This document shows, in pieces, positions 3,933 to 62,696 of a stretch of 64,000 nucleotides of DNA; the first letter of the stretch is position 1; each line of letters begins with the position of its first letter. Made by a program: the position numbers and the translations under genes. The stretch lies in NCBI GenBank assembly GCA_964016885.1, contig OZ024742.1:315332001-315396000 (forward strand), read 5' to 3'. The DNA is from Eledone cirrhosa (lineage: Eukaryota). A model generated the notes under the pieces. The model was not told the DNA's origin and made no database searches. It saw only the letters and a program-made list of their open reading frames with translations.

Positions 3933-3969
3933 TGCCTGCAGAAAGGACGGTGTTGGGTGTCTTTTGCCC

Positions 3970-4936: not shown

Positions 4937-4977
4937 GTTGGTATTTTTTCTTAGGTGCCGTCTGGGTGCGCGTTCGA

Positions 4978-5434: not shown

Positions 5435-6625
<1,191 letters not shown>

Positions 6626-6862
6626 TTCTTTATTAGCCACAGGGGCACAAAAGAAAGGGAAAAATACAAAGGGGGAAGTTTACATACAATAAAAACGTGT
6701 AAAATGTTATCACAGATGGAATTTAAAAGTTAGTCGATTTTCCCCAATAGAGGGAGACAGTTTATATGGGTAACACATACCCCCGAAAAAAAATGTGCAA
6801 CCCTCATCTCCAGGAGTACGAAGAGCTTGTACTCCTTTCCTCTCCTCCTCCTTTTCCTCAAC

Positions 6863-8890: not shown

Positions 8891-8977
8891 TGCTACGTAA
8901 AATTCGTAGGGTAGACCGTCGAGACCTGGAGATTTGCGTTTGCTGCATTGGCTCAGCGCGTCCCCTATCTCAGTGGC

Positions 8978-10303: not shown

Positions 10304-10336
10304 GTTGGTGCTGAAAAGTTAAAAGAGGAAAAGAGA

Positions 10337-12252: not shown

Positions 12253-12469
12253 AACGTAATCAAAATTTTACAATATTTTTTCCAAGATTCGATGGAGAAA
12301 AATTTTTTAAATGGATATTCCGCCCCTGAAGGGGCGAAAATGAGTTGACCCACCAGCTGAAGGTCCAGACGGGTGGTCAAGTTACACAATGATATAAAAT
12401 TTAACTAAAAACTCACGTTTTTTTCTTACATAAATTAACGGAAACTTCTCCGCGAAGTGACACACGACT

Positions 12470-12476
12470 GATAGAG

Positions 12477-12525
<49 letters not shown>
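12470..12525. repeat. (GATA)n microsatellite between Tx1 copies B and C
   Basis: Tetranucleotide run. Confidence 0.98.
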
Positions 12526-12526
12526 T

Positions 12527-13416
12527 CTTTCTTTCTTTATTTGCCACAGGGGCGTACAAAAATGGAACATTACAAGATGTGACAGCGGGGGTTTTACATA
12601 AAAATAACTTTAACATTAATAAATAACAATAAACTATATATAATCAAATAACAATTGAAATCCCCAATAGGTGGGGAACGTTACTGCAGGGTTGTTTTAC
12701 ACCCCGTGGATAGAACAACCCTCAACACCAGGAACACGTCTTGTAGGTGTTCCTGTCTTCCCTCTGTTTATTTTCCTCAACCTACAGGTTTATATACAGA
12801 GAAGGCCCATTCACTCGGGCCAATTTCGCCACATTCACCCACCTTTCAGCGAATTTACTGGGGTGTAACACCTCTCTCTCCACTCTCACCTTTCTTCTGA
12901 AGTGGTACTTAAAGAAGGGGATAAGTTGTTGTCCGGAGAGAAGGGTTTTTGCCTTCAGTCCTTTAAACCTTGTCCACCATATTACCTCTTTCGCCATAGC
13001 CACCAGACAGAGGAAAACCGCCTCTCCTTCGTTCTTAAATGAAGGCGGTGGGGTGATCCTCACGATGGACTCGGCTGACAACTGGATGCGTCCCGCACGT
13101 GACAGTAGCTGTTCGACATAATTCCACAGGTCGGTCACCCCTGAGCACTGAACAATTGCGTGCAGAACGGTTTTGATGTCCTGCTCGCATCTTGGACAGG
13201 TCCTTTTGGCAGGCTCTGCCAGGGCATTCGTGCCTGTAGATTTTGTCTCGAACTGGTAGAGCTCCTCGGTAGCACTGCCAGGCCAGAGACCTCTGGAAGT
13301 TATCCATAGGCTCTGGACGGAAAGTCCTCCCGAACAGACTGGTCAGTTCGTCCTCCTCGATGCCTAGAGTTTCCCCGAGAACGTCGTCGCACTTATCCTC
13401 CACTAACAAGTCCAAC
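12527..13416 (-). mobile_element. Tx1 copy C, 5'-truncated (ORF2 C-terminus plus 3' UTR)
   Basis: Homologous to about 6626-7490; ends AATAAAGAAAGAAAG. Confidence 0.93.
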
Positions 13417-13573: not shown

Positions 13574-13574
13574 T

Positions 13575-13730
13575 CAGGATGGATTCAGTTGGAAACTGGT
13601 TAGACCATTTCTCACCAGAGTACTTGATATTTGGAGTAGCAGAGTAAGTTTATATGAAAGAGTCGGCAGCGCGACGACTGAGCTATTATCGTTTCAACAG
13701 CTAGATCCAGCCGTCCGGGTCACTACTCTT
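13575..13730 (-). mobile_element. Diverged PLE pseudo-LTR 3' fragment related to 33452 and 49112
   Basis: Shares CACCAGAGTACT..ATA.TT.G and the 3' half of a hammerhead (GAAACG...CGTC). Confidence 0.6.
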
Positions 13731-14188
13731 TAATATATATATATATAAGTTGCGTGGTGGGGGCGTGCGTGTGTGTGTGTGTGTGTGTGTGGCTCAGTAA
13801 TTGGTTTAACGGTAAATATGGATGATGTGAGAAGAATATGAGTGTTTTGGTTTGTTCTTGAGTAGTATAGAAAGTGCATGAGGTCGAGAGTATGGTTTAT
13901 ATCTGGCTTAGGTACGAGGTAGGCTTTAATTTTCTAAGTGGATTTAAATATGGGTTAGAACAATCAACAATGTAAGTCGCATATATATATATATATATAT
14001 ATATAGTTAGGGAAGCAGAAAATTGCTTATTGTGATGCAGTTCGTGGTTAAGAAAGCCAGTTTCATGGATGATTTCAACGTACGGTTAGGGGTAACTCCA
14101 CAAGTTTGTAAGAATTCCGTTCAATCTTGGAGTATAAAGTATAAAAGAGAAAACACACGTAAGCATTAAGAGAAGGATTTTATCCAGG

Positions 14189-14290
14189 TATTTATGACCG
14201 TTTTATTGGTAAGTGCAACCTTATATTGCTATACTGCAAATAGCAGCCACTCAATTATAATTGTTGTTCACAGTCCATATTTTCAAAATA
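14189..14290 (-). ncRNA. Hammerhead motif with UUGAAAA core, decayed copy (GAAA changed to AAAA)
   Basis: UAUU-UUGAAAA-long stem II-AAAA-CGGUCA-UA-AAUA. Confidence 0.55.
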
Positions 14291-14857
14291 GTGAGTAAGT
14301 TACTCTTGAAATAATTCTTAATATATAGAGAAAAACATTTATTTGGAATTGTATTTACTAGTATAGAGAGAGAGGAATCAGAAGGTGAGGGGACAAACGG
14401 AATAGTATAAAGAGAGAGGAAGGGGGAGAGTTAGAAAGTAGAGTGACAAACTGAGATGGAGGGAGGGGTAGAGGTGGAAGGATTCCTTGATCAGTTTTGA
14501 TAGCAGACTTCATGTCGTGGAATGTAGTGAGTTAAAGAGAATTAAATTGATCGTAGTGGGAGGGATGGATAGAGAGAGAGAGACAGGGGGAGATATTAAA
14601 GAGATAAATATATACATAAAAAATAAAGATAAAGATAAAAATGACAAAAATAAAAGCAAAGAAGGGGGGAGAGAAAGAAGAGAAGAAAAGATAGCCAAGA
14701 AGGGGAGGGAAGCAAGGAAGAAAACGAAGAAATAGAAGAGGAATGAGGGAGAAGAGGGGGATATAGGTATTGGTTTTGTGGGTAATTAAAAGGGTTTAGA
14801 TACAACAAGAGGGTATAAAGTCTAAGTATATGCAGTTTGTCAGTTGGTAGTAAGAGG

Positions 14858-15247
14858 TTAAGGGTTCGATTTGCACTTGTAGTGCAAAAACTTCTCTTTG
14901 AGTCTATGGTTACAATAAATTGATCTTTCGATTTTATTGTTGAGTAACTTATTCTTCGAACTCAAGATGTGGAACAGCTCAAGGTCGCATAATCGGCAGC
15001 TTCTCATACCACTCCGATATGGGGGCGCGTTTGATAATTTGTTCCACTTCAGGGTGTATTGATGGTTACTTTCCCTCAGTTGCCAGGTCTTGTTTGCAAG
15101 GGTAGTTACATAACGATGCTGGGAATGTTTCATTGCGTAACGGTGTGTATACCAACGGGCTTTAAATGTATTCCCAGTCGCTCCGATGTAATACCATTTC
15201 TGGTTGTCTGATTCCACTGTGCATTGGTAAACCAGGTTAGACTGCAT
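14858..15247 (-). CDS. PLE GIY-YIG endonuclease fragment
   Basis: LVYQC...YYIGATGNTFKARW..H...CRLCDLE...LLN. Confidence 0.9.
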   Translation of the reverse strand: MQSNLVYQCTVESDNQKWYYIGATGNTFKARWYTHRYAMKHSQHRYVTTLANKTWQLRESNHQYTLKWNKLSNAPPYRSGMRSCRLCDLELFHILSSKNKLLNNKIERSIYCNHRLKEKFLHYKCKSNP

Positions 15248-15317
15248 ACATTCATTATGTAATGGACAGGTTTCAGGTAGGTGGCAAATACAATTCCAAA
15301 TAAATGTTTTTCTCTAT

Positions 15318-15419
15318 AAATTTGAAAATTTGGACTGTGAACAACAATTATAATTGAGTGGCTGCTATTTGCAGTATAGCAATATAAGGTTGCACTTACC
15401 AATGAAACGGTCGTAAATA
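15318..15419 (+). ncRNA. Type I hammerhead with UUGAAAA core and long stem II; stem I 5' strand partly deleted
   Basis: UUGAAAA at 15322-28; UUGG...CCAA stem II; GAAA at 15404-07; ACGGUCGU stem III; GUA site at 15413-15. Confidence 0.6.
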
Positions 15420-15466
15420 CCTGGATAAAATCCTTCTCTTAATGCTTACCTGTGTTTTCTCTTTTA

Positions 15467-15898
<432 letters not shown>

Positions 15899-18930: not shown

Positions 18931-21114
18931 CACTGGTCTGCGATGTTTTCAAGGTCTAACATATAATACATGATTTTAGGCCAGTTTTTTGCACTGAATC
19001 CAAAAATCATTTTACTCAATCAGATCAGGTTAATGAAATATTAGCACATTAAAAATATCCTAAATTCCGATCTATTTGTAGGTGAATAAAACGCAATATT
19101 GAAAATATTAGACTGATTTATTCACAGAAGGCTTACAAAATATTTTGAATAGATAGCAAGAAGTGTATAATGAACTAAGGAAGCTACTCATGGATGAATG
19201 GTCTCTTCAGGGACTTCCGTTTGTGCTGAGCAGACTGCGCATCCCTCTTTAGGCACCAGCAGTAGTCGGCCAGAAAGTTGACATCCCATCGGCCTTGATA
19301 GCGTTCCTACATAACACTGATATCTTGGTGAAAGCGCTCACCATGTTCTTCACTGAAGTCTCCACAATTCTCTGGAAAATAGTCCAGATGAGACCGGAGG
19401 AAGTGCATTTTCACTGACACGCGCGCACCAAGTTGGCGGAAATTCTCCATTAACTGATCAACCACCTTCTGATACTGGGAACTTCTATAGTTGCCAAGGA
19501 AGTTTGCAATGACTGACTTAAGGGACAACCAGGCAGAGAGTTCAGCAGGATTCAGTGCATCATCAAAACTAGTATCCTTGATGAATTCCCTTATTTGAGG
19601 ACCATCAAATATACCTGCCTTAATTTTCTCCATGCTTTTTCGTTGAAACTTCTGATGGAGGAAAGCAAATCCTCCACCTTCCCTGTCCAATGCCTTTACA
19701 AAGTTCTTCATGAGACCGAGTTTGATGTGGAGGGTTGGAAGCAATATCTTGCTCGGTTCAACCAGAGGATGGGACAAAACGTTGTGTGATCCAGGTTTTA
19801 ATCCTTGTCTTAATGGCCACTCTTGTCTGACATAATACTGGTCATCAGCACGGCTATCCCATAAGCACAGAAAGCATGGATACTTTGTGTAACCACCTTG
19901 AAGTCCTAGGATGCGTCCAACAACTTTAAGATCTCCACAGATCAACCATTTATGTTTCTGGTAGTTCAGAGCAGACAACAGACGTTCCATGCTTTTGTGG
20001 GATTCTTTCATTTCAACTGAGTGCCCAACAGGGATCGATGAAAACTTGTTTCCGATATTCAGAAGAACTACTTTGAAACTTCTGTTAGATGAGTCAATGA
20101 AAAGTCTCCATTCCATAGCAACATACTTCAGACCAAGTAATTCAATCAGGTCAGCAATAGACCAGTGAAGTAGACCAGTGAAGATGCTTCATCAAACATG
20201 AAGAATTTTCTAAATTCTCTCTTGCGGTCCCGATACCAATAGAATGTTGTTCCTGGTGCCAGTAGACGTTTCTCTCGAAGACGAGAACCCAGTAGCTGGG
20301 CAGACTCCTTCGAAAGGTTCAGGTCTCGTGTCAGGTCATTGAGTTCGGCTCGGGTCAAAGGCACCGGTTGGTCATCCTCTTCTGTATTCATCACACTTAG
20401 CTGTATCAATCATGTCACTAGATTCGGAATCAGAACTAGATTCCATGGTGACATTTGGCTCAGGAACAGGAAGATCGGGGCCATGGGGGACTGGCTTTAT
20501 GGCAGAAGGAACATCAGGGTATTGAACATGGTGCTTGTTCTTGCAATTGATGCCTTTTAGATTTGTCATGCAAAAGTAGCAGTCGGTAACGTGATCTTTC
20601 CCTTCCCTCCACACCATTGGGACACCAAATGGCATACTCTTCCTTTTCTTGTTCCTCCAATCCCGTAAGTTCTCTACACATGTTTTGCAGCAGATATGGG
20701 GAGCGAATAGCTTATCCTGGTCCCCTAGTTTGACTCCAAAGTACGCGTGATATGCCTTCTTCACAAAATCCGTGATTTTTGCTTGACGGTCTGGAAGAAC
20801 CACATGTCCGCAGATGTAACAGAACCTATTAGGATGGTTTTTACACTTCCGATCCATTTTTCTAGACCTGAAAAGAGAAATAAAAATAATTATTAAAGGT
20901 TACCCACGACCCGGTTTTGCAAAAGCAAAGCCCATAAACGCTTGGATTGCGATATTTTAGAAAAATATGCTGGAAAAGAAATAGACTATATCTTAGAAAC
21001 CAGACCTGACCCAGAAAAATAAACTGTATTTTTGAATTCTGCATGCAAAAAGGGTCCTAAATCATTTGGAAAATCCTTGACCTTTTTAAAAAAGTTTTGA
21101 AACGCAGACCAGTG
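18931..21114 (-). mobile_element. Chapaev3-type (CMC) DNA transposon with both ends intact
   Basis: TIRs CACTGGTCTGCG / CGCAGACCAGTG; 3-bp TTA TSD at 18928-30 and 21115-17; transposase inside. Confidence 0.85.
19195..20857 (-). pseudogene. Chapaev3-type transposase split into ORFs 20372-20857, 20146-20409 and 19307-20116, plus a tail after a stop
   Basis: CKNHPNRFCYICG, DHVTDCYFC, WRLFIDSS, CGDLK, LHIKLGLMK and HLDYFPEN.G.FSEEHGERFHQDI; splice acceptor ttttcag just upstream of the ATG. Confidence 0.85.
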
Positions 21115-23154: not shown

Positions 23155-23372
23155 GGGGATTGGTAGTATCGGTAAAGCGTCGGACACCATGCTTGGTGGC
23201 ATAGAGTTACGGTCCTTTACGTTCTGAGTTCAAATCACGATGAGGTTAACTTTGCCTTTCATCCTTACGGGGTCGATGAAATAAAGTATCAGTAACGCAC
23301 TGGGGTCGATATAATTGACTTTCCTCTCCCCCAAAATTGTTGGCCTTGTGCCTAAATCAGAAATCATTATTT
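23155..23372 (+). mobile_element. tRNA-derived SINE with Meta-like core, near full length
   Basis: A-box-like TGGTAGTATCGG, B-box GAGTTCAAATC, core, ATTATT tail. Confidence 0.9.
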
Positions 23373-23984
23373 ATGTATGTAAAACCAAGCTGATATGCTA
23401 AAACCACCCAAGTGAAATAAATCCATGGAAAACCAAAAGAAATTAATATTATAAACCTAACCAAATTTCAGAAACCTGGCTTTTAGAAAATACTTGCTTG
23501 GTAATCATGAACTAACTCGAATCGTAGAAAAACTTAAATATTATGGGTGATATGGATAGAGTAGCCGAGTCATGACAGGAAGTGAAACCCTCACCTGTAG
23601 ATTATGTTCGAAAAAACATATAGCAAGTGTGTATCCGTGGCTTTATAAGTTTTCCACAAACAGAAAGTCTACATCGAATTCAGCAAGCTATGGTAGAAAG
23701 GTTCACTGTTCACCTGCCAAATGTCAGAGCTAGTGAAAATATATGATATTTTCTAAAATATACAGTGACTGATCGGCCTGATTTGCATATTAGCAGACTG
23801 GCTGATCAGTCAAATCTGAATATTAGCAGATCCTCTGAACAGCCAGATTTTCATATCAGCAGCCTGGCCAGTCAGTTTCCTGTATACGAGCGATCAATGG
23901 CCGGCTTTGCCATATTCAAATAAAAACAAAAACACTTGGCTCTACATGGCTGAATACAATAAATGTAATCTGAGTTTTTCGAGT

Positions 23985-24150
23985 ATTAATAATTGTTTCT
24001 ATATTAGGCACAAGGCCAGCAATTACCCAGTACATTATTGGTACTTTGTTTTATCGACCCCGTAAGGATGAAAGGCAAAGTTAGTCTCGGCAGGATTTGA
24101 ACTCACATCGTAAAGGGACGTAACTATGCTGGAAAGCATGTCCGATCCTC
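23985..24150 (-). mobile_element. SINE of the same family
   Basis: Same core on the reverse strand. Confidence 0.85.
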
Positions 24151-24477
24151 TTCGATTCGTTTGCAATTATGTAAACTAGCTTCATTTTTAATGCCGTATC
24201 AATGGAATGAGCCCCTCATGCTTGCTCTTGTGTTTGCATGTAAACAGAACTGCAGAGACTAATGTTTCTGGGTATTACCCTTCATCGGTACAGTACGAAT
24301 CGAATATTATTATTAAGATTCGAAAAACTCAGATTACATTTATTGTATTCAGCCATGTAGAGCGAAATTTTTTTTTATTTTTTTTTATTTGTATATACAT
24401 ATATAGACACATATACACACACATACGCGCGCACACATATACACACACATACACACATATACACACACATACACATG

Positions 24478-24556
<79 letters not shown>

Positions 24557-24558
<2 letters not shown>

Positions 24559-24750
24559 CGAAGAAGGTATGGTAAGGAACCAGATGGACCATAACGCACC
24601 AGAGTACTCAATACTTAGGGTAGTAGAGTAGGTAATAGGAAAATGTTTAACCCCGACGGCAGAGATCAAGCCGTTTCGATGGCTATTTCTGGACTCCAGA
24701 AATAGCCGTTGAAACGGCTTGAGCTCTGCTGTCGGGGTTAAACAGTTTCC
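24557..24750. mobile_element. Fold-back PLE pseudo-LTR fragment (family of 49112) in (TA)n
   Basis: Palindrome centred at 24694; each arm holds the 3' half of the hammerhead. Confidence 0.82.
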
Positions 24751-26279
24751 TATATATATACACGCGCGTATAGATATGTCTATATTTCATGAAAATATTA
24801 CATTAAACATAATCGAATGCATTAATGGAAATCTTGTCAAATAGTATAACCTGTTAACCTTTCCCTTTTTACATTCATAAAACTTCAAAGCGATATCTAT
24901 CAAATTAAGGTAAGAAAAAGGAATATTAATTCCATAGCATTATAGACAAGTAAAGCATTTAGTAACGAAATTCTGGAAGGAATGATCATGCAAGGCAGTC
25001 TTCCCTGGTTGTGCTTGATCAGAGTTGACCGAGTGGGAAAGAGTAATAAACAACAAGCAGCATGAAACCCCTAGAGTGACGCCTTCTCTAGTGAATCATG
25101 CAGATGTACCATTCAAAAGAGTTGCAGTTTACTTGGCCCGATTCTTTTTTTTTTACCATATTTCTATCGAAGCACATTACCTTCAATTTTCAAATAATTT
25201 CGAAAATAAATATTTTGTACGGATTTAGTAATATAACTTTCTCATTTTTAAGTTGGTGTTTGGAACTAAGTTTAAAGTATCTTACGTAAAATTAGGATTA
25301 GAGATTTTTAGATAAATATAAACACTTTAAAACAAACTTTTTTTATCATAAAAGTAGGGTCGGTTTCAAGTGGTTTGTTAGCAAAAGAGTTAAATAAAAA
25401 GAAATATGCATAAACATATTCATTTGTAACACTGTTCGTCTCGTATTTCTGTTGTCGTTTCTTTTCTGTTTTTATGGGGATTATTATTTAAAGCAGTTTA
25501 ATGTTTGTTGCTGAACATTGTTTCCTTGTAGCGCCATATAATATGATGTATGTGGTAAAACAACATCTATCCATTTCACAGTCACAAGAGTGTTTTGTAT
25601 AGTTTAAAATAAAATATAATACAAAATATTGAATAACATTATTTTGCTGAAAGCAAAACCACTGGATGATCTATCTCAGAAATATAGAGAAATATTTGTG
25701 ACAATTTCTGAGAATGAACGTAGAAACTAGCCCAAACTGAATTAAGGATCATGAAAGGATCTTGAACAAAAGATTCGTTGCAACATCTGCACGACACAAT
25801 TTTTACGTGAACAAATTGCAACAAAAGTCTAACCACATTTATAATTTTACAGTTCCGTGACGTGTTGCACGTCTGGCTCTTCGTGAAAGGTTTCTATAAT
25901 ATAGTAAAAGAGGTGATGGCCTCAATCTTCGCTCAACTCTACTCCATCTCTGGAGAAAGTGACGCTGTTACAGGTCTCTCAGATCCCTTCTCGTGGTGCA
26001 ACAAAGCAAATTCCGAGAAAGAGACGGAGAGTTGAGTGACAAAAAGGACATATTTTTCTTTGTCCCCATTTTGTTTTGAATACATATTCTTTGAAAGATT
26101 AAGGGTAAAATATTACTCAATATTATAATACCTGATTACTCACACATTGAACAGATATTTATCATACATTACATTCAAATTATAGATTGTAAGTTTAAGG
26201 TTCAAGAAATATTTTTATTCTCTGAATACTGTTGTGAAACAAAGGTGCTGAAATTGCAAACCTCAAAGAAAAGATTGAA

Positions 26280-27100
26280 TAAAACCAGCATTGATGCCTG
26301 GCAATAGTGCCAATATATCAGTCAAATTCAAGGGAGTGCAAAGAATATTAAGTTATGAAAATCCTTTAGCTATATTCTCACTGTATGTATGATATACATT
26401 GAATTTCTGTGACGAAATCAGTAGACGCACTGAAATAGTTTCAGTTTTTCTTTCAGAACTATTGAAAGTGTTTATCATATTTTCCTATGGTCTAAATGTA
26501 TGGCAAATTCTTTTCACACACATAAGCTGTTGGTCATTGCAAGCAAATGAGAAAAAGCGAAAGACTTCTTTTGATGAAAACCAGTCAATGAATGCCAGAT
26601 AAAGGATCATGATACATATGCCGAATCATTATTTTGGCATATATCATTGTCGATTCTGTTTGTAGTCTAAGGAGAAATGCAGCAGCAAAGAAAAGTTGAT
26701 ACTTTTTCTTTCTTCTGCCAATACTTATGTATATCAGAAAACCATTTGACCACAAAATTTGTCATTTTACAGAATTTTACAATACTGATGGTAAGGAAGT
26801 TTCAAATGAAAACTATGATATATCGAGGCAGTTTGAAGAACTAGTTGGAAAATTTCATTCGAAATCTTCATATATCACTATGTTTCACAATGCCTGCAAC
26901 GGCAGCTCTTGGCGGAACATTCATTCAATAAACTTAAACTTATAAAGAGCTATTTCAGAGCAAACATATCATTGGATAATCTGCTTGCCTTAGTTCGGCT
27001 CAGCAGAAATATTAATTTCAGATATATCATACAAAGATTTCCCCAAAATCACTTTGAAAAAGTGAAAAGCCAGTTAAACGATATATGTTGTTTTTAATCA
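26280..27100 (+). pseudogene. Decayed hAT transposase
   Basis: Remnants of ANISVKFKGVQ and of the hAT dimerisation motif AEHSFNKLKLIKSYFRANIS. Confidence 0.65.
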
Positions 27101-29371
27101 ATAAATAATTACAATTATGTTTTACTATTTTACTAACTGATGTGTAGTGATCCCAAAATAGTTCTACCCAGAGTATCAATGTTTCTCTCAACGTTCACGG
27201 TGTAACTAATCGGGTTATTGATTATATAACTATTTCTCTGTGTATAGTATGTTTGTATTTGAATTGTAAAAGAGAGAGAGAGAGGGGGTTGTTTCCTAAA
27301 ACACAGTGATGTAATAGTTTTAGATTGTTTCCTTTTAATATAATCTTCATAATTTGAGTGAATGAACAGATAGTGGAAGGAACTGTGATGATTGGAGTTT
27401 TTATAACAATCAAATGACCTCCCCAAGCATTTCCAGATAAAATTAAATTTTGAACATTCCCCTTTCTTTGAGTGTTTGTTTATGTGGACTGTGTGTAACC
27501 TGCAAACATTTTATCCTCGTTGCAAATGATAGAAATAGGGGAAGTTAATAATAACGCTGAAACAATATAATCATTTAATACAATGAGTTTCATTTTTTCT
27601 TGCAAAATCGCATGCGATTATCTTTTATAGTGAAACTAATTAATTGAATTCGGTTCAATTGTTTGGGTTTCTATTTGCTTCATATGAAAATGTTATTGCC
27701 ATACTGTTGCGGATCGATAACGTGTTGAATACCAAATGCACCGAGGATTATATGTACCCACTTAAATCTATAATAGGAGCTTAAAAACTATTATTTTTGT
27801 ATTAGCTTATCATAAATACTTTCTCTCTTTACAGTTGCTCATTAGCTCATATATCTCTAATATAGCTGTCTGTCTTTAAGACAGTATAGTTGATCTGTTA
27901 TGTCTGCATTTGAAAGATGCCTGAAATAGAATGTTGCAATTATATTAATTTCTTTTCATATATACAGACACATTTGTATTATATATTATATTTACCATTG
28001 GTGCAATCCTTTTTGTGTTATCATCTCATGCTTCATATGTCATTTTTAGAACGGTGTTTGGCAGCTAGACTAGCTTTTCATTATTAGCATGACAGTTAAC
28101 AATTTGTTAAAGACTTGGTAGCAGCTGTTTTCTTTCTTACGTCTAGAGACCTTGATCGATTCCATCATTAGTACAAAAGCACAATCACTGTATAGAGTAA
28201 GAAAATGTCATCGTACCTCACTTTCATTAAAATGGACAGAACATAACGAAAACACTCGCAAAGGCTTCAAATATTATGCTTTACTGTCACCGAGGACCTC
28301 ACATCTTCAACTGCTTCCCAAAGATAGGTCTTCCATTTCAGAGCCCCCAAAATACTCCAGCTCTCAACAATTAATTACTTTCTATATGGTTGAACGTTGG
28401 AACTACAATAGAGTATTTCCCCAACGTCTAGTACGGTATTACTGCTATAGTCACACATATCTGTCTATAGGTCAATCAGCCGATTGACACAAAGTAACGC
28501 ACAAACACATTCTAACGTTTGAATCATAGTTGTTTTGTTTTTGTCTCCTTTCTTGTGTTTTTACCGTCTCTGTAGCTTTTTCTTTCTCAGAGGTGGTTGG
28601 TCTCATACTATCTAGCCTTAGATACTCAGAGATTTCCTTCCTGCAGCCACCGTTGATATTCAACAGTTTAAGCGGAACGGTAACAGCATTAATCTATCCA
28701 ATCTAGGAAGGACTGCAAACGGCCCCTTTCTGCAGACCAAACCAATGAAAATACTATACATATATATGTATGAATAAATATTTACTTACTGTCTACACCA
28801 TTTGAGTAGCTGATTAGTACTATTGTGCTGTAATGGCTACGAAATTAATCGATAATAAAGCAGACAGTGAAATAACAGGAAAACATTTTCAGTGAATTTG
28901 GTTTAATTAGAAAAGCAGAGAAATTCGAAATTATCAGCTAGGTTTGTGTGTATATATGAGTACAAACATTGACACGCAAACATGTACACACTTTACAGAT
29001 AGGATTCATGTTTGTCAGCAGATTTTTGACATTTTCAAGCATATTGAGACATGAAGTAAGAATATTATATTAGTTTACGGTTAATCTTTCCATCGATAAT
29101 TACGGAGACAACACTAGACAGGTTTCCACTTAGTTGGGGTTTCTCACCATACTGTAACATTTCTTTATATTTCCTAAGTGTTACAGATTGAATTACTAAG
29201 TGAAAATACGTAAATATAGAGTAAAAGAAAAAATTGATAAGTTATATTCTTATGATGAACTAACCAAATACTATATATTTAGTTAGCTATAGCACTGGAA
29301 CACACACTTACACACAGACACACACGTAAGTACGTACGTGTGTAAGTCACCATTATTTCAGAAAAGAAAAA

Positions 29372-30165
29372 CGGTGGCGGATTGGCAGTATCAGTGGAGC
29401 GTCGGACAATATGCTTTGTGGCATAGAGGTACGTCGCTTTACGTTCTGAGTACAAATCCCACCGCGGTTAGCTTTGCCTTTCATTCTTACGGAGTCGATA
29501 AAATAAAGTACCAGTAATGCACTGGGGTCGATTTAATCGACTTTCCCCCTCCCTCAAAATTGTTTCCCTTGTTCGTAAATCAGATATCATTATTTTACAT
29601 CCTGGTGATGAAATGGGAGTATCGGTAGAGCAACATACTTTACGGTATAGTGTTACGTCCCTTTACATTCTGAGTTCAAATCCCGCTGAAGTTAGCTTTG
29701 CCTTTCATCCTTACAGGGCCGATAGTGGATTGGCGGTAGAGGGTCGGACACCATGCTTTGCAGCATAGAGTTACGGCCCTTTATTATCTGAGTTCAAATC
29801 CCACCGAGGTTAATTTTGCCTTTCATCCTTACGAGGTCGATAAAATAAAGTACCAGTCACGCACTGGGGTCGATTTAATCGATTTTCCCCTCCCCCAAAA
29901 TTGCTGGCCGTGTGCCTATATAAGAAACCATTATTTTACATCCTGGTGGTGAAACGGGAGTATCGGTAGAGCATCGGACAAGAAACTTTACGGTATAGTG
30001 TTACGTCCCTTTACATTCTGAGTTCAAATCCCTCTGAAGTTAGCTTTGCCTTTCATCTTTACGGGGTCGATAAAATAAAGCACCAGTAATGCACTGGGGT
30101 CGATTTAATCAACTTTCCTGCTCCCTCAAACTGTTGGCCTTGCGCATAAATCAGAAATCATTATT
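29372..30165 (+). mobile_element. Tandem cluster of four SINE units (A-B-A-B)
   Basis: Repeated heads and cores; flanked by a 16-bp direct repeat CATTATTTCAGAAAAG. Confidence 0.88.
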
Positions 30166-32779
30166 TCAGAAAAGCGGTGATCAAGTGTTGAAAATTATAA
30201 CACCAACTTCAATGCTATATCGTATTGGGTTTTGTCTCTCTATGTTTTCGGTTGAAATACTTCTGATATCGACATTGCTTTTCATCTTGTAGAGGTCGAT
30301 AAAAATAAGAACTAGTAATATGTGCTGTAGAATCACACAAATGTTTATCTCTCCTAAAACATTGTATTCTACCAATGTAAGAAATTGTTATTAAGAACAA
30401 AAAAAAAGAGATTATGTAAAACATAGGTTTATGTTTGTATTTTTGTGTTCGTTCAGTGGTACTTTCATAAATATTCGTCTGATATCTCTAATAAAAATGA
30501 GGCGACAATAATGCAGCTCTTTTTAAACAAATAAATTCAGGCATAGTTAGAAATGGACATCCTTTACTTCTATATTTAATCTTCATTGATCTTCTATGGA
30601 AATCACATGTGTAGTATTGTCTTCATATTTACTCTTGAGTCTCTCCAGTAAAAATAAGATAGTGTATAATCAAACATGTTCACCGCTTTCGAAACAGATA
30701 TGTTCAATATATTAACATTGATTTTAAAATAACTTTACAACGATAGTTCATGATTTTTCTTTTGATATAAATAATGTCTGCAGTAGTATGATATTACATT
30801 GTTTTACTATTTCTGCCAGACTGCTGACCAGCAGAGTCGTTAGAATGTCGGATAGAATGTTTGGAGTGTTCGTTCTGCCTCCCTGCTCTCTCAGTTAAAA
30901 TCCTACTGAGATCAGCTTTGTCCATTCGAGGTCGATGAAAAACGTATTAGTTCAGTACTGAGGTCGATTATTCCTCTATATCTCTTTCCCTACATCCTCC
31001 TCTTTCTCACTTTCTATCCTTCTCTGGAAGAAATCTGCTGTACACAGACATGGAGGGTGACGGTCTACGCCAGGCTTAAATGCCCTCGAAACGCTGTATA
31101 CCACTACAGTGCCCCCAACGACTCCCTCTAGAGTTACAAGACTATACATGCATGCATTATTTCTGTGGAAACAGCAGCCTCTAAAGAAATTTTGCTCCTC
31201 ATATTTTTTTCAGTGTGCGAGATTTAAGGAGAATTCTGTGAAACAATCTGCTAAATAAGTTTTGATAAACTACAAGACGTTTCTATACTGTAAGTATGTA
31301 TTTTGTAGATTTTATCTTTTTCCTTTTTCCTGTGAGTGAGTGAAGAAAAGAAGAGATAGTCAAGAAACTCGCACGCTTGTGTGTGTGGAAATACACTCGT
31401 GAAAGATAAAACGAACATAAACGATGAAGGATGAATAAAAGCATCTATCTCCAACATCGTCTATCCCCTGGAGTTGATCATTCCGATTCCTATAAATATA
31501 GGCGAGAAATTCTGCTTCTTCCCTATTATGTACAGCGATTTAAAAGAGCAACTACTGAGAAAGATACATATAACATTCAGCAGTATTCATATAACATTCC
31601 CTCATATGCATATCGTGTGACACCTCACTACATGATAATCTTCCGTTCACAAGTTCTACTCCCACTTAACACCACATATCAGGCAAGCATATAGAAAATG
31701 TCCCTGAAAACTTCTCCAGATAGGGACAAGACAATCTAAGCATGTCCCTCAAGAGCAGCAAACACAGGTACAATCAAGACACAGCTCTAATGTTTCACAG
31801 CTAACTTCTTCCTTACTAAGTTGTCAGAGTCTAATATTTGTTAATAAAAACTACGTATCTACAATATAGACAAAATTGCATCTAGAAATCAAATGTTCTT
31901 TCCCTAATCATAGATTATTTCCGATCTGGACAGTTTATAACTCTATATAAACTATAAATTGAGCTTATGTATCTGGAACTAATATTTGAGACAGCATTCA
32001 CAAGTGTTCTCTTAACTCTCTGACAAACTATCACTACATCCCCTAACATACTAGTGTATTGAAGTTCATCCCTGGCTCTTCCACTTTTGCTACAACGGTC
32101 CCTTACCCACCCCAACTAATTAACTTACCTCTTCTTCTCTCTTCGACTCTAAGATATCTCACCCCCAAATCCGCATCAAATATTTCACCCAATGCGTTAT
32201 ACCCATAACTGCATTCCTCTAGATCTCCAATTACATATTCCCTGTTGACATCAGTCAAGCTATCCGTAATATAGAAAATCAACTGTCAGGCACGTGAATG
32301 CTAGTCAAAGATGATTGACATGGGTCTACTGTGTAGAGCATGATAGTAACATTTTCCAACACTAAGGAATGTTGTTCAACATGGGACAATTATAGAAAAT
32401 AACATTAAGTGTCTATATCAAAAATTATAAATATATAGCGGAAGAACATTGTGGAAAGCATGGTAATTGGACTTTAAAAACATCGTATCAGCAATGTACA
32501 TAAAACAAGCAAATTACTATAGCATGCGGCCCGTTTGGCTTTCTGAATAGTACGCCTAATTTCAAAACTGCCCTGAACTTTTAGCTGTGGAGCCTTGCTT
32601 ATGATGAACCACATCCTATACGGCCCACTGCTCGAATAAGGCTGCCCATGCTTGATTTACAATATCAATAATCTTGAAAGTTTATTAGAATCAAATGATG
32701 ACCAATGGCTTACATGCATTCAAATAAAGAAAACGCATCAAGTCGCAGCGTTGAAATTTAAAATTCTTTAATGTGTGGA

Positions 32780-32990
32780 TAATGGTTTCTAATTTAAACA
32801 GAATGCCAGCAGTTTGAGGGGAGGAAAAAGACGATTAAATCAGCCTCAGTACTTGACCGGTACTGTAATTTCTTGAACCCGGAAAGATGACAAACAAAGC
32901 TGATGCCGGTAGGATTTGAACACTGAACGTAAATAGACGTAATTGAATGCAGCAAAGCATTCTGTCCGATATCCTAAAGATTCTTCTAAT
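32780..32990 (-). mobile_element. Older, diverged SINE copy
   Basis: Degenerate core and GGATTTGAAC B-box complement. Confidence 0.65.
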
Positions 32991-33451: not shown

Positions 33452-33452
<1 letters not shown>

Positions 33453-33627
33453 AGATAGGGGTGGTAAAAACCAGCTAGACCATAGCCCACCAGAGTACTC
33501 GATACTTCGGACAGTAGAGTGGGTAATATGAAAAGATTCAGTACCTTGACGGCTGAGCTCCGGCCGTTTCGACAGCTAGATCTAGCTGTCGAAACGGCCG
33601 GAGCTCAACCTTCGGTGTCCTGACTCT

Positions 33628-44804: not shown

Positions 44805-45090
44805 CTTATGTTTTCTATTTAATTTTGGTTGGAGTTCATTTATGTTTATTGCCTCTGTGATTTGTCTAAACATTGCGTCTTTTCTGTGTGTAGATTCTAT
44901 TTTTATTTCTATGTTCTCTAATTTGCCCTTATGTTCTATTTTAGCATGTTGGTGGAGTATTGATGATATATATATATATATATATATATATATCATCAAT
45001 ACTCCACCAACATGCTAAAATAGAACATAAGGGCAAATTAGAGAACATAGAAATAAAAATAGAATCTACACACAGAAAAGACGCAATGTT

Positions 45091-45095
<5 letters not shown>
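44805..45095. mobile_element. GIY-YIG coding fragment of the 61845 PLE family, folded into a palindrome around (TA)n
   Basis: QHAKIEHKGKLENIEIKIESTHRKDAMFRQ on both strands. Confidence 0.88.
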
Positions 45096-45158
<63 letters not shown>

Positions 45159-45864: not shown

Positions 45865-48210
<2,346 letters not shown>

Positions 48211-48329
48211 AACCAGTAAGACCCCGACGGCTGAGCTCAAGCCGTTTCGACGGCTAATTCTGGACTAAATGAAAATTTATCCTGGTATATAAATAGCCGA
48301 GCTTCTCAAGGGGTAATTCCATATATGGT
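48211..48329 (-). ncRNA. Type I hammerhead with UUGAGAA core
   Basis: Reverse-complement twin of 49112-49231 with an identical core. Confidence 0.82.
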
Positions 48330-49111
48330 CAAAGTGATTGTCACAAGGATTGGTCACAAGTTAGTAGTAATTCTTAGATGGCAAATTAGTGGGGGAGAGG
48401 GTGGCTAAACCTGCCAGTGGGAGAAAAAGGGGAGGGGGTGGAGTAGACCCAATCATGCGTTGGTAGTGCCGGCTACAGCTGGACATGAGGTCAAAGAAGA
48501 TACTAGGGAGGGGGAGGGGGAGGAAGTCGAAACGGTAAGTAGAACAATGAGGGGTAAAAATATATATATGAAAAAAAAAAAGACTGAGAGTGATAAAAAG
48601 CGAATAAATGTAAAGAAAAAAATATAAGCAATTTCTACGACCTAAGTCTCTAGCTATTGCTAGGCTAGATAAATAAATAAAGAAAGAAATAAAGAAATAA
48701 AGAAAGAAAGAAATAAAGAAATAAAGAAATAAAAAAATAAGTAAATAAACTAGGTGGGACGGAATAGGAAAGGACCCTTTTAAGAGGTATAAGTACGTAT
48801 ATCATACGGTGAAGGGTCAACAATGGGGGCCAAAATACTAAAGAAACTACCACGAAATAATTAATAAAGGGTTCTACCCCGGGCACAAGGCCAGCAACCA
48901 CCCAGTGCAGCAGGAAAGTAAACTAGTACGAGATAATAATTCTGAGTCCCGAAAAAATATACTAATGCTAACTCTAATGGTACCGCCACGCTACAAAAGT
49001 TCTTATACAAGCTACATGAAAGTTCGTACAGGTTTAGCCACCCTCTCCCCCACTAATTTGCCATCACAGAATTACTACTAACTTGTGACCAATCCTTGTG
49101 ACAATCACTTT

Positions 49112-49231
49112 AACCATATATGGAATTACCCCTTGAGAAGCTCGGCTATTTATATACCAGGATAAATTTTCATTTAGTCCAGAATTAGCCGTCGAAACGG
49201 CTTGAGCTCAGCCGTCGGGGTCTTACTGGTT
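49112..49231 (+). ncRNA. Type I hammerhead with UUGAGAA core and GUC cleavage site
   Basis: Stem I ACCCC/GGGGU; core at 49133-39; stem II G..CGGCUA/UAGCCG.C; GAAA at 49194-97; stem III ACGGC/GCCGU with palindromic loop UGAGCUCA; GUC at 49214-16. Confidence 0.85.
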
Positions 49232-49313
49232 CTTAATACCCACTCTACTACCCTAAGTATTGAGTACTTTGGTGCGTTATGGTCCACCTGGTTCCTTGCC
49301 ACATTTCCTTCGT

Positions 49314-49411
<98 letters not shown>

Positions 49412-50064
49412 AAAATGTATGACCCCAAGGGTCATGCTTTTTCCTATTTCCCACTCTACTACCCTAAGTATTGAGTACTGTAGTGCGTTATGGTCCATCT
49501 GGTTCCTTACCACAATTCCTTTGTTATATACATATATATATATTATTCGCTTTTGTATATATTTTGCAGCATACGCTATTTAAAGTCATGTTAAAACAGG
49601 TAGGGTTATTTTGTAGTGGGTGTGCGCATGCTGCCAATAAAAACACGCGAACCGGTAAAGTTCAATTTTTTTTATTAATCATAACCTAATTGTAAAATCT
49701 CTATGTGTGCGCGCGTGTGGTTGTGTGAGAGAGAGAGTTGCAGTTTCCACAAGTTTGTGTCTGTTTACTTCTATCTACATAGTGGATTTATTTGAGCCTA
49801 CAACCTTTGTATATCCTTTATTATTATATATATATATATATATATGTATGCATATGCATACATCTATGCATATATTTGAGTGTTCCTGGAAAACTGCATA
49901 GAGTGAATGATCACACATGAAGGACCCGTTTTTCATCACCTTTATAGGACCACTCTTACGATAATTTTCCTCTTAACTAATATTGCGGAGCTCCGGTGTT
50001 TCAGATATTTGGGAAACACGAATTTAGCGTAATACTAATGGAGGATGTCTTTCTTAATGCTTTT

Positions 50065-50655: not shown

Positions 50656-52897
50656 CCGTGAAGATAGATTTATGTATATTGTCTTGTATTTGATTTGAGT
50701 TATTTACGTTTCTTCTTTTTTCCTGATTTAGATTTAAGTTTGCCAGTAGACAGCTGTTTCAACTTTTCCCTCGTTGCACTACCTAACCTCTATTAAAGTT
50801 TTACCAAATAGAGTCTGACATTTCTTTGGAATTATCTTCTCGAAATAGAATATTACACTTCAGGATGACAGTGATTAAAATGGAAAAGTATAGGTTGCGG
50901 CTTTCGTCTTTCATTAGGCGAGATTTCCTCATTTGTTATACCGACATCGGGAGTCCGTTGATAAAGCTATGAGAAATATATTAATATCCTTCAATAAGTA
51001 TTCCCTTTACCTCTAAATATATAATTTTGTTTGTTTTTCTAGCCATGTATTCTTGCAATACTATTTATGCTTAAGCATGACGTTGGTTTTATGAATTATT
51101 GTCTCATGATATTACTGGTGTTACTGTAACAATATTTTTGTATTACTAGTGAGATCGTATTACTAGTGAGATTACCAGTGTTATTTTCTTATGAATTTTG
51201 TATGTTGTATTCAAATCTCGACCAGGTCAACTTTGCCTTTCGTCCTTCCGAAGGTCAATAAGTCAAATACTTGGGTCAATTTAATTTACATTCTTCTTCC
51301 CACAAATTAATGGCTTTATGTTTAAATTAGGAACCATTATTATGGTGAAATGAAATTCTCAAAGCAGCTAATTTTGGTCTCTAATGTTTACTCCAACTGA
51401 CAATGATAATTATTTCTTTCATATTCATAAAGGTGAAACTACGTATCTAGAAAAGGAGTATACTTGTGGCGTTGATATCTGTTTCAATTATATTAATGAC
51501 GTAAAGAAGCGAAATATATTTATTCAAAAATGAAAATCAATTCGTTTCTACGGTGGCCAAGCCAGTTATTTATTTATATATATATATATTTTTTTTTTTT
51601 TTTACTTGGCATGTAGCCTAATATTTTAAGGAGTACAGCCAAGAAGCACCTATACTTTTTTTAAGGATGTTATCGACTCAAGAGAGTTGCTAAGATGCAA
51701 ATTTAAAATCGAACCTGACTATCCGGAGGATAGTTTCAATTATTCGGTGCATACTAATAATGATTTCTCACATTAGCATAAATTTACAAATTTGTACAAG
51801 AGTAATATATTTGATTGAATCTACACTAGTTCATAATTGATGCTTATTAAGTTGTAGGCAAGAAAATCTAAGTCAACCTTGGCCCGATTTGAATACAAAA
51901 CGAAAAGAAACAAAACACTATGTGAATCAATATGCTTATTTCTAAAATATTGATATACATACAAATATAGAAACTTCACAACACACCTTCATCTTTAATG
52001 TCAACCTCAATAGGATTCCCATTCATTGTAATTATGAAACATTTAATACATTGTCACCCGCCGACAATTTAGTATCATTTTCATATACCAGTTAGGGTTT
52101 GACTACATAGAACCGCTTTTTATTGGTCGATGGTTACTAAAACAGTGCATACCACGAAGAATGATGTCCATAACTATATAGGTAGAGAAACACATATATA
52201 ATTGCTGACATTCATATAGAAAATGTAGAAAAATCAGACGCAGTTACAATGAAATTTTCTTCTTGAGTCTACTCGTTCCATGTTCACTATTACAGAAGGT
52301 GTTAGTCTGAGTAGGTATAAAAAACATTTATCGCACCAGACTTCACAGTCTTTGACGTTTTTGATGGTAAGTACGCATCTATTCGGTCGAAATCGAACTA
52401 CAGAGTTCAAATCTCGCCGAGGTTAACTTTGCCTTTCATCCTTACGGGGTCGATAAAATAAAGTACCAGTAATGTACTGGGTAATTGCTGGTAATTTTCT
52501 ATTTCAGAGCTCCTACAGTTTGGAAGAAAGGTTGCTTGCATTCTGGCAAGAGCATGGAGGATGTGCGACATGACTTCACTGCAAGATTCGGCAAACCAGC
52601 TTCTCCGAAGAGGACGATACTGCGATGGGAACATAAACTGTTTCTCATTACTTTTTCGTAGGGAGGTGACAAGACTTTCGGACCACCTTGTACTATATTA
52701 GTATTAAAATGTGGCACAAGAACATTCTACTATAGACGGAATACTGTGCAGCCCATATTGGAAGTTTATACTCACAAAATCATTATCGCTCATGTTTAAA
52801 AGCCTACACTACTGATAGTAAGCTTTCCCTCAACAACATCCAAAAATCAGCAGCTCACATGTTTTCTTTCCTTTTGCTGTATCCTATATTACAACTG

Positions 52898-55706: not shown

Positions 55707-56148
55707 GGAGTATAAATGCACACGCAAACAATATATCTAATATACAGTTTAATATATTAATAACCGTTTATAATCAACAGTGAAAGTGTTTACTGTAAAT
55801 AGACGTCATTTAATTAGACTGTAGGAAAATGCTATGATAGTCACGTGGGATGGGCGGGGGCGGGTACGTAATATTAATATTATCATTAAACATTTAAACG
55901 TGGTTTATATCTGTTAAATTAGATATTTCTCCTTGTTTAACCTTTGTAATTCGGCAATGTCATACGTAACTTGATAAATTAGAAACCTTCTGAAGTTAGG
56001 AAATACAAGAAAGATTTCATTGAGGGTACATATAGAAACATATAGATAGATATATAGTGGTAGAACACTGGAAGGTAATATCCGTAGTGGTAGAGCACTC
56101 AGTCCATGGGACGAGTTAGGTAGAAGTGGTTACACAACAGTTAGTTCA

Positions 56149-56198
56149 CCATACCGAGAACAGTTGTTTCACCTTAGCTGATCCTCAGCTCGTAATGG
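56149..56198 (-). ncRNA. Type I hammerhead with canonical CUGAGGA core
   Basis: CCAUUACGAG-CUGAGGA-weak stem II-GAAAC(AACU)GU-U-CUCGGUAUGG. Confidence 0.75.
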
Positions 56199-56735
56199 AC
56201 ATGGTTATACGGAACAGGAAGGACAACCTTACGAACGCGCATGCGCAGAAACGATCACTTCACACAGGCAATACTAAATTGCGTGCGAGAGGTGTAAGGG
56301 AGTTAACTGCGAAAGCCCGAAAGTTTCTAGCTGACAAGAAAATTAGGATGTTGTGGTAATTCAATCCGGAGCTTTGTAGTTATGTAAGAGGTGTTTCCAG
56401 ACATGTGGACAACGTGCGAAAAATTCATTTCTCGTGTTTAGGCAATCACTATTGCGTAATCTCTTTAGAATATTTATTCGTTCATCAATACATAGTCCAC
56501 ACGACGGATTGCCCCTTGCGTATGGCTTGGACGTAGTGATGGCTTTCCATTGAATGGAGTAGTCTATACTTGAGTCCTTGAGGGACCATACGTGGCTCGC
56601 GAGTTTCGTGGATGAACGTCTGTCCGGGTACCTAAAGGTCGACTAGGTCATAAATACCGCTCCATCTTTAACCGACACAAAATAAAACTAGGATACTCCT
56701 GCGCTAAAAATAAAACTAGGATACTCCTGCGCTAC

Positions 56736-57215
56736 ATGGAGGGCCACATCACCAGCAGCCCTAAGAGCTCTTGCCCTAAGCCCAAAGCTTGTCCCCTTCA
56801 ACAGCAATGCAACACACCTGCTGTAGTTTATGAAGCTGTGGTCACTTCCAACCGACCAAATCAAACACAGGAGGTCAAATCATATGTGGGTATGGGGGAG
56901 GGCCGATTTAAGGAACGCTTCTTGAACCACCAGTCGACCTTTAGGTACCCGGACAGACGTTCATCCACGAAACTCGCGAGCCACGTATGGTCACTCAAGG
57001 ACTCAAGTATAGACTACTCCATTCAATGGAAAGCCATCACTAAGTCCAAGCCATACGCAAGGGGCAATCCGTCGTGTGGACTATGTATTGATGAACGAAT
57101 AAATATTCTAAAGAGATTACACAATAGTGATTGCCTAAACACGAGAAATGAATTTTTTACACGTTGTCGACACGTCTGGAAACACCTCATAAATAACTAC
57201 AAATCTCCGGATTGA
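56736..57215 (+). CDS. PLE GIY-YIG endonuclease fragment
   Basis: CPL...C...VVYEA...YVGMGEGRFKERF.NH...CGLCIDE...LNTRNE...CRH. Confidence 0.92.
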   Translation: MEGHITSSPKSSCPKPKACPLQQQCNTPAVVYEAVVTSNRPNQTQEVKSYVGMGEGRFKERFLNHQSTFRYPDRRSSTKLASHVWSLKDSSIDYSIQWKAITKSKPYARGNPSCGLCIDERINILKRLHNSDCLNTRNEFFTRCRHVWKHLINNYKSPD

Positions 57216-57377
57216 AATACAACAACATCCTAATTTTCTTATCAACTAGAAACTTTCGGACTTTCGCAGTTATCTCCCTTACACCTCTCGCACGCAATTT
57301 AGTATTGCCTGTGTGAAGTGATCGTTTCTGCGCATGCGCGTTCGTACGGCTGCCCTTCCTGTTCCGTATAACCATGT

Positions 57378-57427
57378 CCATTACGAGCTGAGAATCCGCT
57401 AAGGTGAAACAATTGTTTTCGGTATGG
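57378..57427 (+). ncRNA. Hammerhead twin of 56149 with uncompensated G8-to-A change (CUGAGAA)
   Basis: Palindromic stem III ACAAUUGU; probably impaired. Confidence 0.65.
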
Positions 57428-57453
57428 TGAACTAACTGTTGTGTAACCACATC

Positions 57454-57555
<102 letters not shown>

Positions 57556-57790: not shown

Positions 57791-57860
57791 CCTCATTACC
57801 AGAAGTTTCCCGAATGAGGCGAATACGAAAGAAACGTCTTCATTCGTTCGTCAGACGAGG
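57791..57860 (-). ncRNA. Type I hammerhead with CUGACGA core and GUA site
   Basis: Stem I CCUCGU/AUGAGG; stem II CGAAUGA/UCAUUCG; GAAAC(UUCUG)GU-A; next to (TA)n. Confidence 0.8.
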
Positions 57861-60613: not shown

Positions 60614-60694
60614 CAATATATAACCAGTTTTATAAATAATTTTGACGTACCATAAATATAGCGACCATTAAGGTAGGAGGCTGGCTACCAAGAC

Positions 60695-60826
60695 AGAATT
60701 AGCCGTCGAAACGGCTTGAGCTCAGCCGTCGGGGTCTTACTTGTTCCTATTACCCACTCTACTACCCTAAGTATTGAGTACTTTGGTGCGTTATGGTCCA
60801 CCTGGTTCCTTACCACATTTCCTTCG

Positions 60827-60828
<2 letters not shown>
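60695..60828 (+). mobile_element. 3' fragment of the 49112 PLE pseudo-LTR family
   Basis: Near-identical to 49180-49313; ends in (TA)n. Confidence 0.88.
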
Positions 60829-61202: not shown

Positions 61203-61820
61203 TATATAAATATATACAAGTTAATATAAATTAATATATGATAAACACTAATATAGACATATTAGTGTTTGTATTGTATATGACCAAGTTAGCTAGATTG
61301 AAAAATACTAATTAAATTAATACAGTTTGCCTGTCTCGATTTAAAATAATAAATCAATAACAACAAACCCATATTGGTAATAACCGTGATACCCGGACAA
61401 ATTAAAATTTCAAAATCCAAACCTGTTCCGTAGACAAATTTAAATTTCAAAACCCAAATAAGTTTCGCAACGATAATTTAAAAAAGTGAAAGATTCCAAT
61501 TTCTGTGGTCATCGGCAGGTATCCAGAAAATTAGCATGTTTCACTTCGAAATACTTCGGAAGACTGATTATCAAGTGATAACGCACATGGTTTTCAGCTC
61601 CTAGCTACCCCATACTCATGCTGCTAGAAATAACAGCCGTTTATATGGGATTAAAATTTAGCTCAACAAAAGGAGCCGTAATACTATATCATATTTAGAG
61701 TTATAAACTCAAACAGTCCTTTACAATTAATTAGCTCAAAGAAAGAAGCATTTCTGAGCCGTGAAATACAAGTTAATATAAATTAATATATGATAAACAC
61801 TAATATAGACATATTAGTGT

Positions 61821-62696
61821 TTGGAGCTGAAAACCATGTGCGTTTCGGACCATACCAAAATCAACATACTGATTGCGGATTTGGTACGGGTGATGAGAAA
61901 CGTGTCCCGCATGTGCAACCCCGAAGAACTAGAGGGACACATACAACACTTCATCCATCGTATGCAGTTCTCTGGTTACAATCAGAGAGATAAAATCAGA
62001 GTGTATAGAGGAGCCAGAACCAAATGGGAAAAAATGGTAAATAATGACACAAATGGGACCTGCCCCTTGTATAGGAGCAAATTTTGGAATAGACTAGAAA
62101 GAACTAGGAATAAGGTTAATAGAATAAACTCATGGTATGATAGCAATAAATACCAGAGTGTAATGTTCATCGACACAACCCCTAGAGGTGAATTAGCTTA
62201 CACATTTAGAAGGGCCCTAGATAAATATAAACTCAATATTAAGATAGTAGAAAGACCAGGTACCTCCATAAAAACAGTTATTAGCAAGACATACCCTTTT
62301 CAAAGACCCCCCTGTATAAATAAGAAATGTATAACCTGTAAATTAAGCCCCCATATTAACTGTAAAACTAGAAATGCAGTATATAGCATAAGATGTACTG
62401 AAAGACAATGTAGAGACAAAAATACAGTATACATAGGTGAGACAGCTCGTAGTGTAAGGGAACGGATAAATGAACACTGGCGAGACCTTCAGGATAGTAA
62501 AGAATCATCTGTACTCTACCAACATGCTAAAATAGAACATAGGGGTAAATTAGAGAACATAGAAATAAAAATAGAATCTACACACAGAAAAGACGCAATG
62601 TTTAGACAAATCACAGAGGCAATAAACATAAAAGAATTACAACCAAAATTAAATAGAAAACATGAGTGGAACAGCAACATCACAACTTACAATTAA
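61821..62696 (+). CDS. PLE RT thumb, linker and GIY-YIG endonuclease
   Basis: RMQFSGY; CINKKCITC...C; VYSIRC...YIGETARS..ERINEH; EAI.I....P.LN. Confidence 0.92.
   Translation: MELKTMCVSDHTKINILIADLVRVMRNVSRMCNPEELEGHIQHFIHRMQFSGYNQRDKIRVYRGARTKWEKMVNNDTNGTCPLYRSKFWNRLERTRNKVNRINSWYDSNKYQSVMFIDTTPRGELAYTFRRALDKYKLNIKIVERPGTSIKTVISKTYPFQRPPCINKKCITCKLSPHINCKTRNAVYSIRCTERQCRDKNTVYIGETARSVRERINEHWRDLQDSKESSVLYQHAKIEHRGKLENIEIKIESTHRKDAMFRQITEAINIKELQPKLNRKHEWNSNITTYN

Follow-up and report, generated by a model that had tools for sequence, protein, structure and literature searches.

The 64,000-nucleotide stretch of the Eledone cirrhosa genome analyzed here (the window; contig OZ024742.1, positions 315,332,001 to 315,396,000) carries a hammerhead ribozyme whose lineage passed at core positions 3 and 8 from C3-G8, in an old family, to U3-A8, then to a C3·A8 mismatch held by ~1,240 copies, and back to U3-A8 in the window and youngest subfamilies. 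What is new is that U3 is unfixed and that the lineage made a C3·A8 excursion before its return to U3-A8. We favor, at roughly 60%, the reading that the ribozyme belongs to the pseudo-LTR of an autonomous Hydra-type PLE, likely cuts after C17, is predicted to act mainly as a dimer, and likely helps transposition without being required for it.

Complete type I hammerheads with the core UUGAGAA lie at positions 49128 to 49221 (+) and 48221 to 48314 (−), and on both strands every hammerhead element of the original prediction was found in the sequence where it had been placed. In the plus copy, stem I (ACCCC, 49128 to 49132, with GGGGU, 49217 to 49221) is followed by the core (49133 to 49139, containing U3, G7, and A8), a G10.1-C11.1 pair (49140/49193) and then a 2-by-1 internal loop, stem II (CGGCUA, 49143 to 49148, with UAGCCG, 49186 to 49191), GAAA (49194 to 49197), stem III (CGGC, 49198 to 49201, with GCCG, 49211 to 49214), U16.1 (49215), and C17 (49216), 3′ of which hammerhead numbering of the sequence predicts the cut. 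The minus copy, with U3 at 48309, A8 at 48304, and C17 at 48226, is identical over core and stems. Both copies have a Watson-Crick U-A pair at 3-8 and all the bases that a hammerhead requires (U4, G5, A6, and A9; G12, A13, and A14; A15.1-U16.1; H17). These two were the only full copies of this family recovered by a scan of the window. Rfam searches at an E value of ≤1 returned no hammerhead in the window, only microsatellite-driven miRNA matches; a perfect 117-nt inverted repeat centered on (TA)n (44863 to 45096) was the source of these spurious matches. A loose scan also picked up a weak canonical hammerhead candidate (CUGACGA...GAAA...UA) between (TA)n runs at 57793 to 57858 (−).

Over 55 copies chosen from 95 candidates, 97% of stem I, 86% of stem II, and 99% of stem III cells were paired. 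Stem II has changed on both sides (G-C in 34 copies versus A-U in 13), a single event between families rather than many. This change, with changes along the lineage at 1 of 43 core and stem positions versus 11 of 51 loop positions, upholds the earlier view that the motif is under selection. The proposed distal AACCA/UGGUU helix is not conserved: 46% of its cells were paired over the 55 copies, compared with 97 to 99% in stems I and III, and the A at 49112 is shared by only a minority of copies. A candidate tertiary pairing of UGGAAU (49121 to 49126, +) with AGUCCA of loop II (49176 to 49181) is a lead only, with 81% of cells paired, variation nearly all one-sided, and one pair open in 36 of 55 copies. 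The middle and young families both retain the palindrome CCAUAUAUGG (49115 to 49123), which lies just upstream of the ribozyme.

The two hammerheads are arms (207 nt, 98%) of one truncated, inverted insertion; the claim of two inverted copies thus stands insofar as both are complete, but they are not two witnesses. Positions 48207 to 49029 (−) hold the 3′ end (3′ UTR and pseudo-LTR) of a 5′-truncated Hydra-type PLE copy with no ORF left. They correspond to the last 820 nt of the element and match every unit of a tandem array described below at its 3′ end (82%); tblastn gave no match within them. The inverted, 5′-truncated second copy of the same insertion follows at 49029 to 49312 (+) and ends in a tail (49236 to 49312, +), which comparison with locus L016 identifies as the leader after the 5′ pseudo-LTR, running into the ORF in full elements. 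The insertion sits in a (TA)n target (left, 48173 to 48208; right, 49313 to 49410), as is characteristic of the Hydra clade, and its inverted layout recurs at many genomic loci.

The five further fragments reported at 13575, 24557, 33452, 49440, and 60695 all exist, but they hold the 3′ half or the tail only, and none is a full ribozyme. All were blastn matches except that at 13575, which was read by eye and placed by genome search. A young-family fragment (60694 to 60827, +; 96.9%) comprises the 3′ half of the ribozyme and the tail, and a stub (49411 to 49543, +; 87.8%) retains only sequence 3′ of the cut site and the tail, with a tiny inverted part. The short inverted fragment at 24557 to 24738 (−) has a 3′ flank that matches an older UUGAAAA subfamily, that at 33452 to 33619 (−) belongs to a middle family whose full copies have the core UUGAUAA, and that at 13574 to 13712 (−) comes from the old family, whose full copies have CUGAUGA.

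RT or endonuclease frames adjoin the ribozyme in 10 of 14 longer loci. The youngest subfamily also forms a tandem array of five units with a period of ~3,543 nt (C1:91473243-91493732, part of which is locus L290), in which the frames of two complete units are open over 784 and 786 codons. The family protein contains the RT motif YRDDG at residue 340, then the GIY-YIG-like YIGLT at 598, and the whole diagnostic set of the Hydra clade (an RWK-like motif, DKT, a CxCx5C linker, CxxC, and CxH) is present as RWR at 27, DKT at 109, CNCPDRSIC at 564, CNLCSEE at 662, and CKH at 690. Pfam and PDB searches of the family ORF gave no match, and the Atlas neighbors of the protein carry RVT_1 and GIY-YIG at minority shares. 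PLE hallmarks are likewise present, namely, a pseudo-LTR, tandem and inverted 5′-truncated copies, and a tail. Judged by these motifs and Atlas look-alikes, the window hammerhead family is an autonomous Hydra-type PLE with RT and a GIY-YIG-like endonuclease, and what the window carries is a truncated product of this coding family. The assignment to a PLE pseudo-LTR was borne out; the description of the family as noncoding was not, given the 784-codon frame. Since full copies carry an ORF, a non-LTR retrozyme or other noncoding family with a short tandem monomer was rejected; Naiad and Chlamys elements were rejected by domain order, as the endonuclease motifs follow the RT and are not N-terminal to it.

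Further PLE remnants occur in the window. An inverted insertion of a different family at 56121 to 57455 (524-nt arms, 95%) holds a Hydra-like endonuclease remnant, at ~30% to the protein of the hammerhead-bearing family. Another (14133 to 15475, 155-nt arms) has a Hydra-like endonuclease frame at 14858 to 15313 (−), at 40% to the family protein, and at 61818 to 62696 (+) another PLE ORF is represented by its C-terminal part, which contains the GIY-YIG-like motif YIGET.

The 3-8 pair positions the hammerhead general acid. Genome searches with fixed flanks and a free core yielded 5,256 exact-flank copies (1,976 matches with one stem II start and 3,280 with others), of which 3,691 were U3-A8 (977 plus 2,714 in the two flank sets), 1,238 (24%) were C3·A8 mismatches (853 plus 385), and 327 had other cores; the units counted are pseudo-LTR copies, of which one insertion often has two, and the counts are lower bounds. 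A reversed control gave 0 matches against the 1,976, so that chance does not account for the motif. The family majority is thus U3-A8 and not CUGANGA, as predicted, but the two positions are not both fixed: A8 is, and U3 is not. The C3·A8 copies correspond to the U3C single mutant that the original prediction expected to be dead, and they form the trunk of the lineage. G8 was rare, with 13 matches in the set with the GCU flank and 2 of 100 among the matches listed in the second set; since only 2 of the 13 were C3-G8, we rejected the idea that the window copies are two decayed outliers of a CUGANGA family. Assembly or homopolymer error was rejected as the source of C3, because length is unchanged, C3 is linked to diagnostic bases, and it is present in independent contigs (run X1), which showed T>C at 49133 in 38% of the depth and listed no variant at A8. 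Run X4 had a lower C3 share (17 of 470 depth), from which no conclusion was drawn.

The other families place these states in a wider frame. The middle family had UUGAUAA in most of the 100 matches listed (113 in total), found with a pattern that required YUGANRA, and CUGAUGA was the core in 22 of 30 old-family loci, which had been retrieved with a query that itself carried CUGAUGA. C3-G8 is likely the ancestral core state, because all 26 Hydra rows in file S2 of PMC8557442, as far as that source was available, are CUGANGA; those rows have short helices, and none matches the Eledone ribozyme. Copies with U3·G8 were considered as an intermediate clade, but those sampled were scattered. One insertion (L198, C1:5772330 and 5772558) has a U3·G8 wobble in both arms, and its branch falls between those of the middle family and of UUGAAAA.

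With the core columns left out, three trees agree on an order from the middle family and UUGAAAA (both U3-A8) through a CUGAGAA grade to a young U3-A8 clade, which includes the window subfamily. The ORF tree drew on 30 of 197 copies, each with 600 or more aligned nt and only 3 of them older than the C3 stage, and nests the young clade inside the C3 grade with support of 100/99. The 3′ UTR tree used the same rows and carries a long-branch warning among the older ones; the core-masked ribozyme tree used 89 rows, at most 8 per group. A single C3 clade was rejected by the AU test on all three (P values of 1.9e-61, 0.0024, and 0.0031), although these are not blind tests, since a previous tree with partly the same rows had suggested the grade hypothesis. 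All three trees also reject C3·A8 as a dead-end side clade. Median copy divergence falls along the ladder (0.036, 0.031, 0.031, 0.021, 0.010, and 0.000; some loci of the fifth group were selected because they resemble the window). Trunk pN/pS was 0.12 and 0.09 across the C3 stage, compared with 0.43 for copies against their own group; therefore, the C3·A8 stage was the active lineage, with its ORF under purifying selection. About 0.1 synonymous changes per site accrued in each trunk step, ~0.2 in all. Within the C3 stage, 0 of 43 core and stem positions changed, compared with 7 of 51 loop positions (P = 0.014, or 0.038 without the sites fixed by the search pattern). The return to U3 could have happened by chance, with a probability that we estimate at roughly 12%.

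That the hammerhead lineage kept working with C3·A8, through either a C·A wobble or a C3-G7 shift, is possible if doubtful; the dated series C-G, U-A, C·A, U-A on one scaffold would then be a compensatory walk through a supposedly dead intermediate. In the stricter version, which we consider unlikely, C3·A8 stayed catalytically competent as a C·A wobble, stabilized by a tertiary contact and the long stem II, and cleavage was essential and never lost. The unchanged state of the other core bases and of the stems during the C3 stage, the time elapsed in synonymous changes, and the candidate pairing of the 5′ strand with loop II all speak for it; against it, the lineage went back to U3, and the remaining core sites, 10 in number, could not by themselves demonstrate catalytic constraint. 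Moreover, the part of PMC9901934 available to us reports, for a different construct, that single mutants at the 3-8 pair were low and only the G-C swap rescued it.

A shifted register, in which C3 of CUGAGAA pairs with G7, so that the core lacks N7 and gains an A ahead of stem II, would explain why N7 is G in 98 of 100 C3 copies among the matches listed in each of the two flank sets, when in U3 lineages any of the four bases (U, A, G, or C) occurs there; PLE hammerheads also commonly carry an additional base between 9 and 10.1 according to the available text of PMC4209133. Shared descent explains the G7 linkage, however, and a C3/A7 copy (L214) lies at the base of the grade in the core-masked tree. 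No relevant paper on an N7 deletion appeared in our literature search, and we regard the shift as highly improbable.

Another account holds that catalysis was irrelevant throughout, the structure being kept as a 3′-end signal for RT and endonuclease with positions 3 and 8 left to drift. The intact scissile bond in the copies and the two core changes on the trunk fit it, as do statements in the available portion of PMC8557442 that what hammerheads do in EN+ PLEs is unclear and that canonical ones are lacking in the thriving Naiads. Yet U4, G5, A6, A9, G12, A13, A14, A15.1, and U16.1 do not differ between the majority rows of the three families (old, middle, and young), both long-lived states (C-G and U-A) are Watson-Crick pairs, and stem II and the fold were restored in the youngest subfamily, so that we think this account improbable. 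Stem conservation may nevertheless reflect protein recognition rather than catalysis.

Under the favored reading of a helpful but dispensable ribozyme, the U3-A8 core likely cuts after C17, and folding predictions suggest that it would do so mainly as two copies paired via GAGCUC. The energies of four old-family rows that are misregistered in stem II in the alignment were disregarded. In the window monomer, the hammerhead is predicted to lie 2.7 kcal/mol above the preferred hairpin, with 0.9% of molecules in the hammerhead fold; the competing hairpin AGCCGU-CGAA-ACGGCU (49187 to 49202, +; pair probability 0.80) would trap the GAAA of the core. Two copies fold at −69.1 kcal/mol together and at −56.4 kcal/mol as two monomers (no concentration term), and in the predicted dimer, stems I and III form between strands and the core is open. 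The putative interface is the palindromic loop III (UGAGCUCA, 49203 to 49210, +), whose GAGCUC all three families (old, middle, and young) retain; this retention and the modeled dimer fit the dimer model for PLE hammerheads in PMC4209133, as far as that text was available. Two changes in the youngest subfamily make the hammerhead the predicted minimum-energy monomer in 4 of 4 rows. Inserted copies end ~19 nt past C17, and the copied RNA was therefore intact across the cut site, either uncut or religated. Because of this, a mismatched core could have kept spreading, and slow cutting would not block reverse transcription. Cleavage probably processes or circularizes tandem transcripts and raises output, without being essential.

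The U3-A8 swap alone is ordinary, having been published for natural hammerheads and for those of PLEs. The part of Perreault et al. 2011 (PMC3088659) available to us reports natural C3-G8 to U3-A8 covariation, cited there as active in vitro, and describes no abundant lineage with a mismatched 3-8 pair such as that of Eledone. In the accessible text of Cervera and De la Peña 2014 (PMC4209133), Cercyon PLEs of Schistosoma mansoni resemble the Eledone family in having a type I hammerhead in the pseudo-LTRs, a U3-A8 core in over a thousand copies, opposite-strand copies 100 to 700 bp apart, a palindromic region III, and a proposed dimer action. The Schistosoma hammerheads are minimal, whereas the Eledone ribozyme has a full stem of 5 bp as helix III and ~37 nt in loop II, and its host is Hydra type; that text reports nothing like the large C3·A8 stage. 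With the Hydra clade of C-terminal EN+ PLEs (Craig et al. 2021, PMC8557442, in the part available), the family shares RW(K/R), DKT, CxCx5C, CxxC, and CxH, the (TA)n target, an inverted truncated copy with a tail, and a 3′-end hammerhead; its unit of 3.1 to 3.5 kb and tail of ~77 nt set it apart. Our literature search, which covered openly accessible texts, found no natural C3·A8 lineage; such variants may occur in subscription papers and in the supplements of PMC4209133 and PMC3088659. The terms "core" and "mutation" are absent from the accessible portion of bioRxiv 10.64898/2026.07.22.740005.

Whether PLEs need hammerheads is an open question according to the part of PMC8557442 that we could consult, and the Eledone family is a natural test, offering near-isogenic natural versions with C-G, U-A, or C·A at the 3-8 pair, for each of which the lineage position and copy number are known. 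Should C·A prove dead, some 1,240 pseudo-LTR copies would have been produced by an autonomous element that lacked a functional ribozyme yet conserved its shape, and the motif would have a second job. If C·A cuts, it is a natural exception to the core rule, and descriptor searches that require a 3-8 pair miss such ribozymes.

The window holds other repeats besides. A Gypsy-like LTR retrotransposon with gag, RT, and integrase frames lies in several pieces at 1181 to 4978 (−), and a LINE-like element with a gag-like ORF and AP endonuclease and RT frames, plus partial duplicates, lies at 5415 to 13342 (−). Two frames at 19307 to 20899 (−) resemble what we take to be a DNA-transposon protein. Several copies of a SINE-like dispersed repeat family of ~200 nt lie at 23170 to 30301, 32779 to 32969, and 52362 to 52455.
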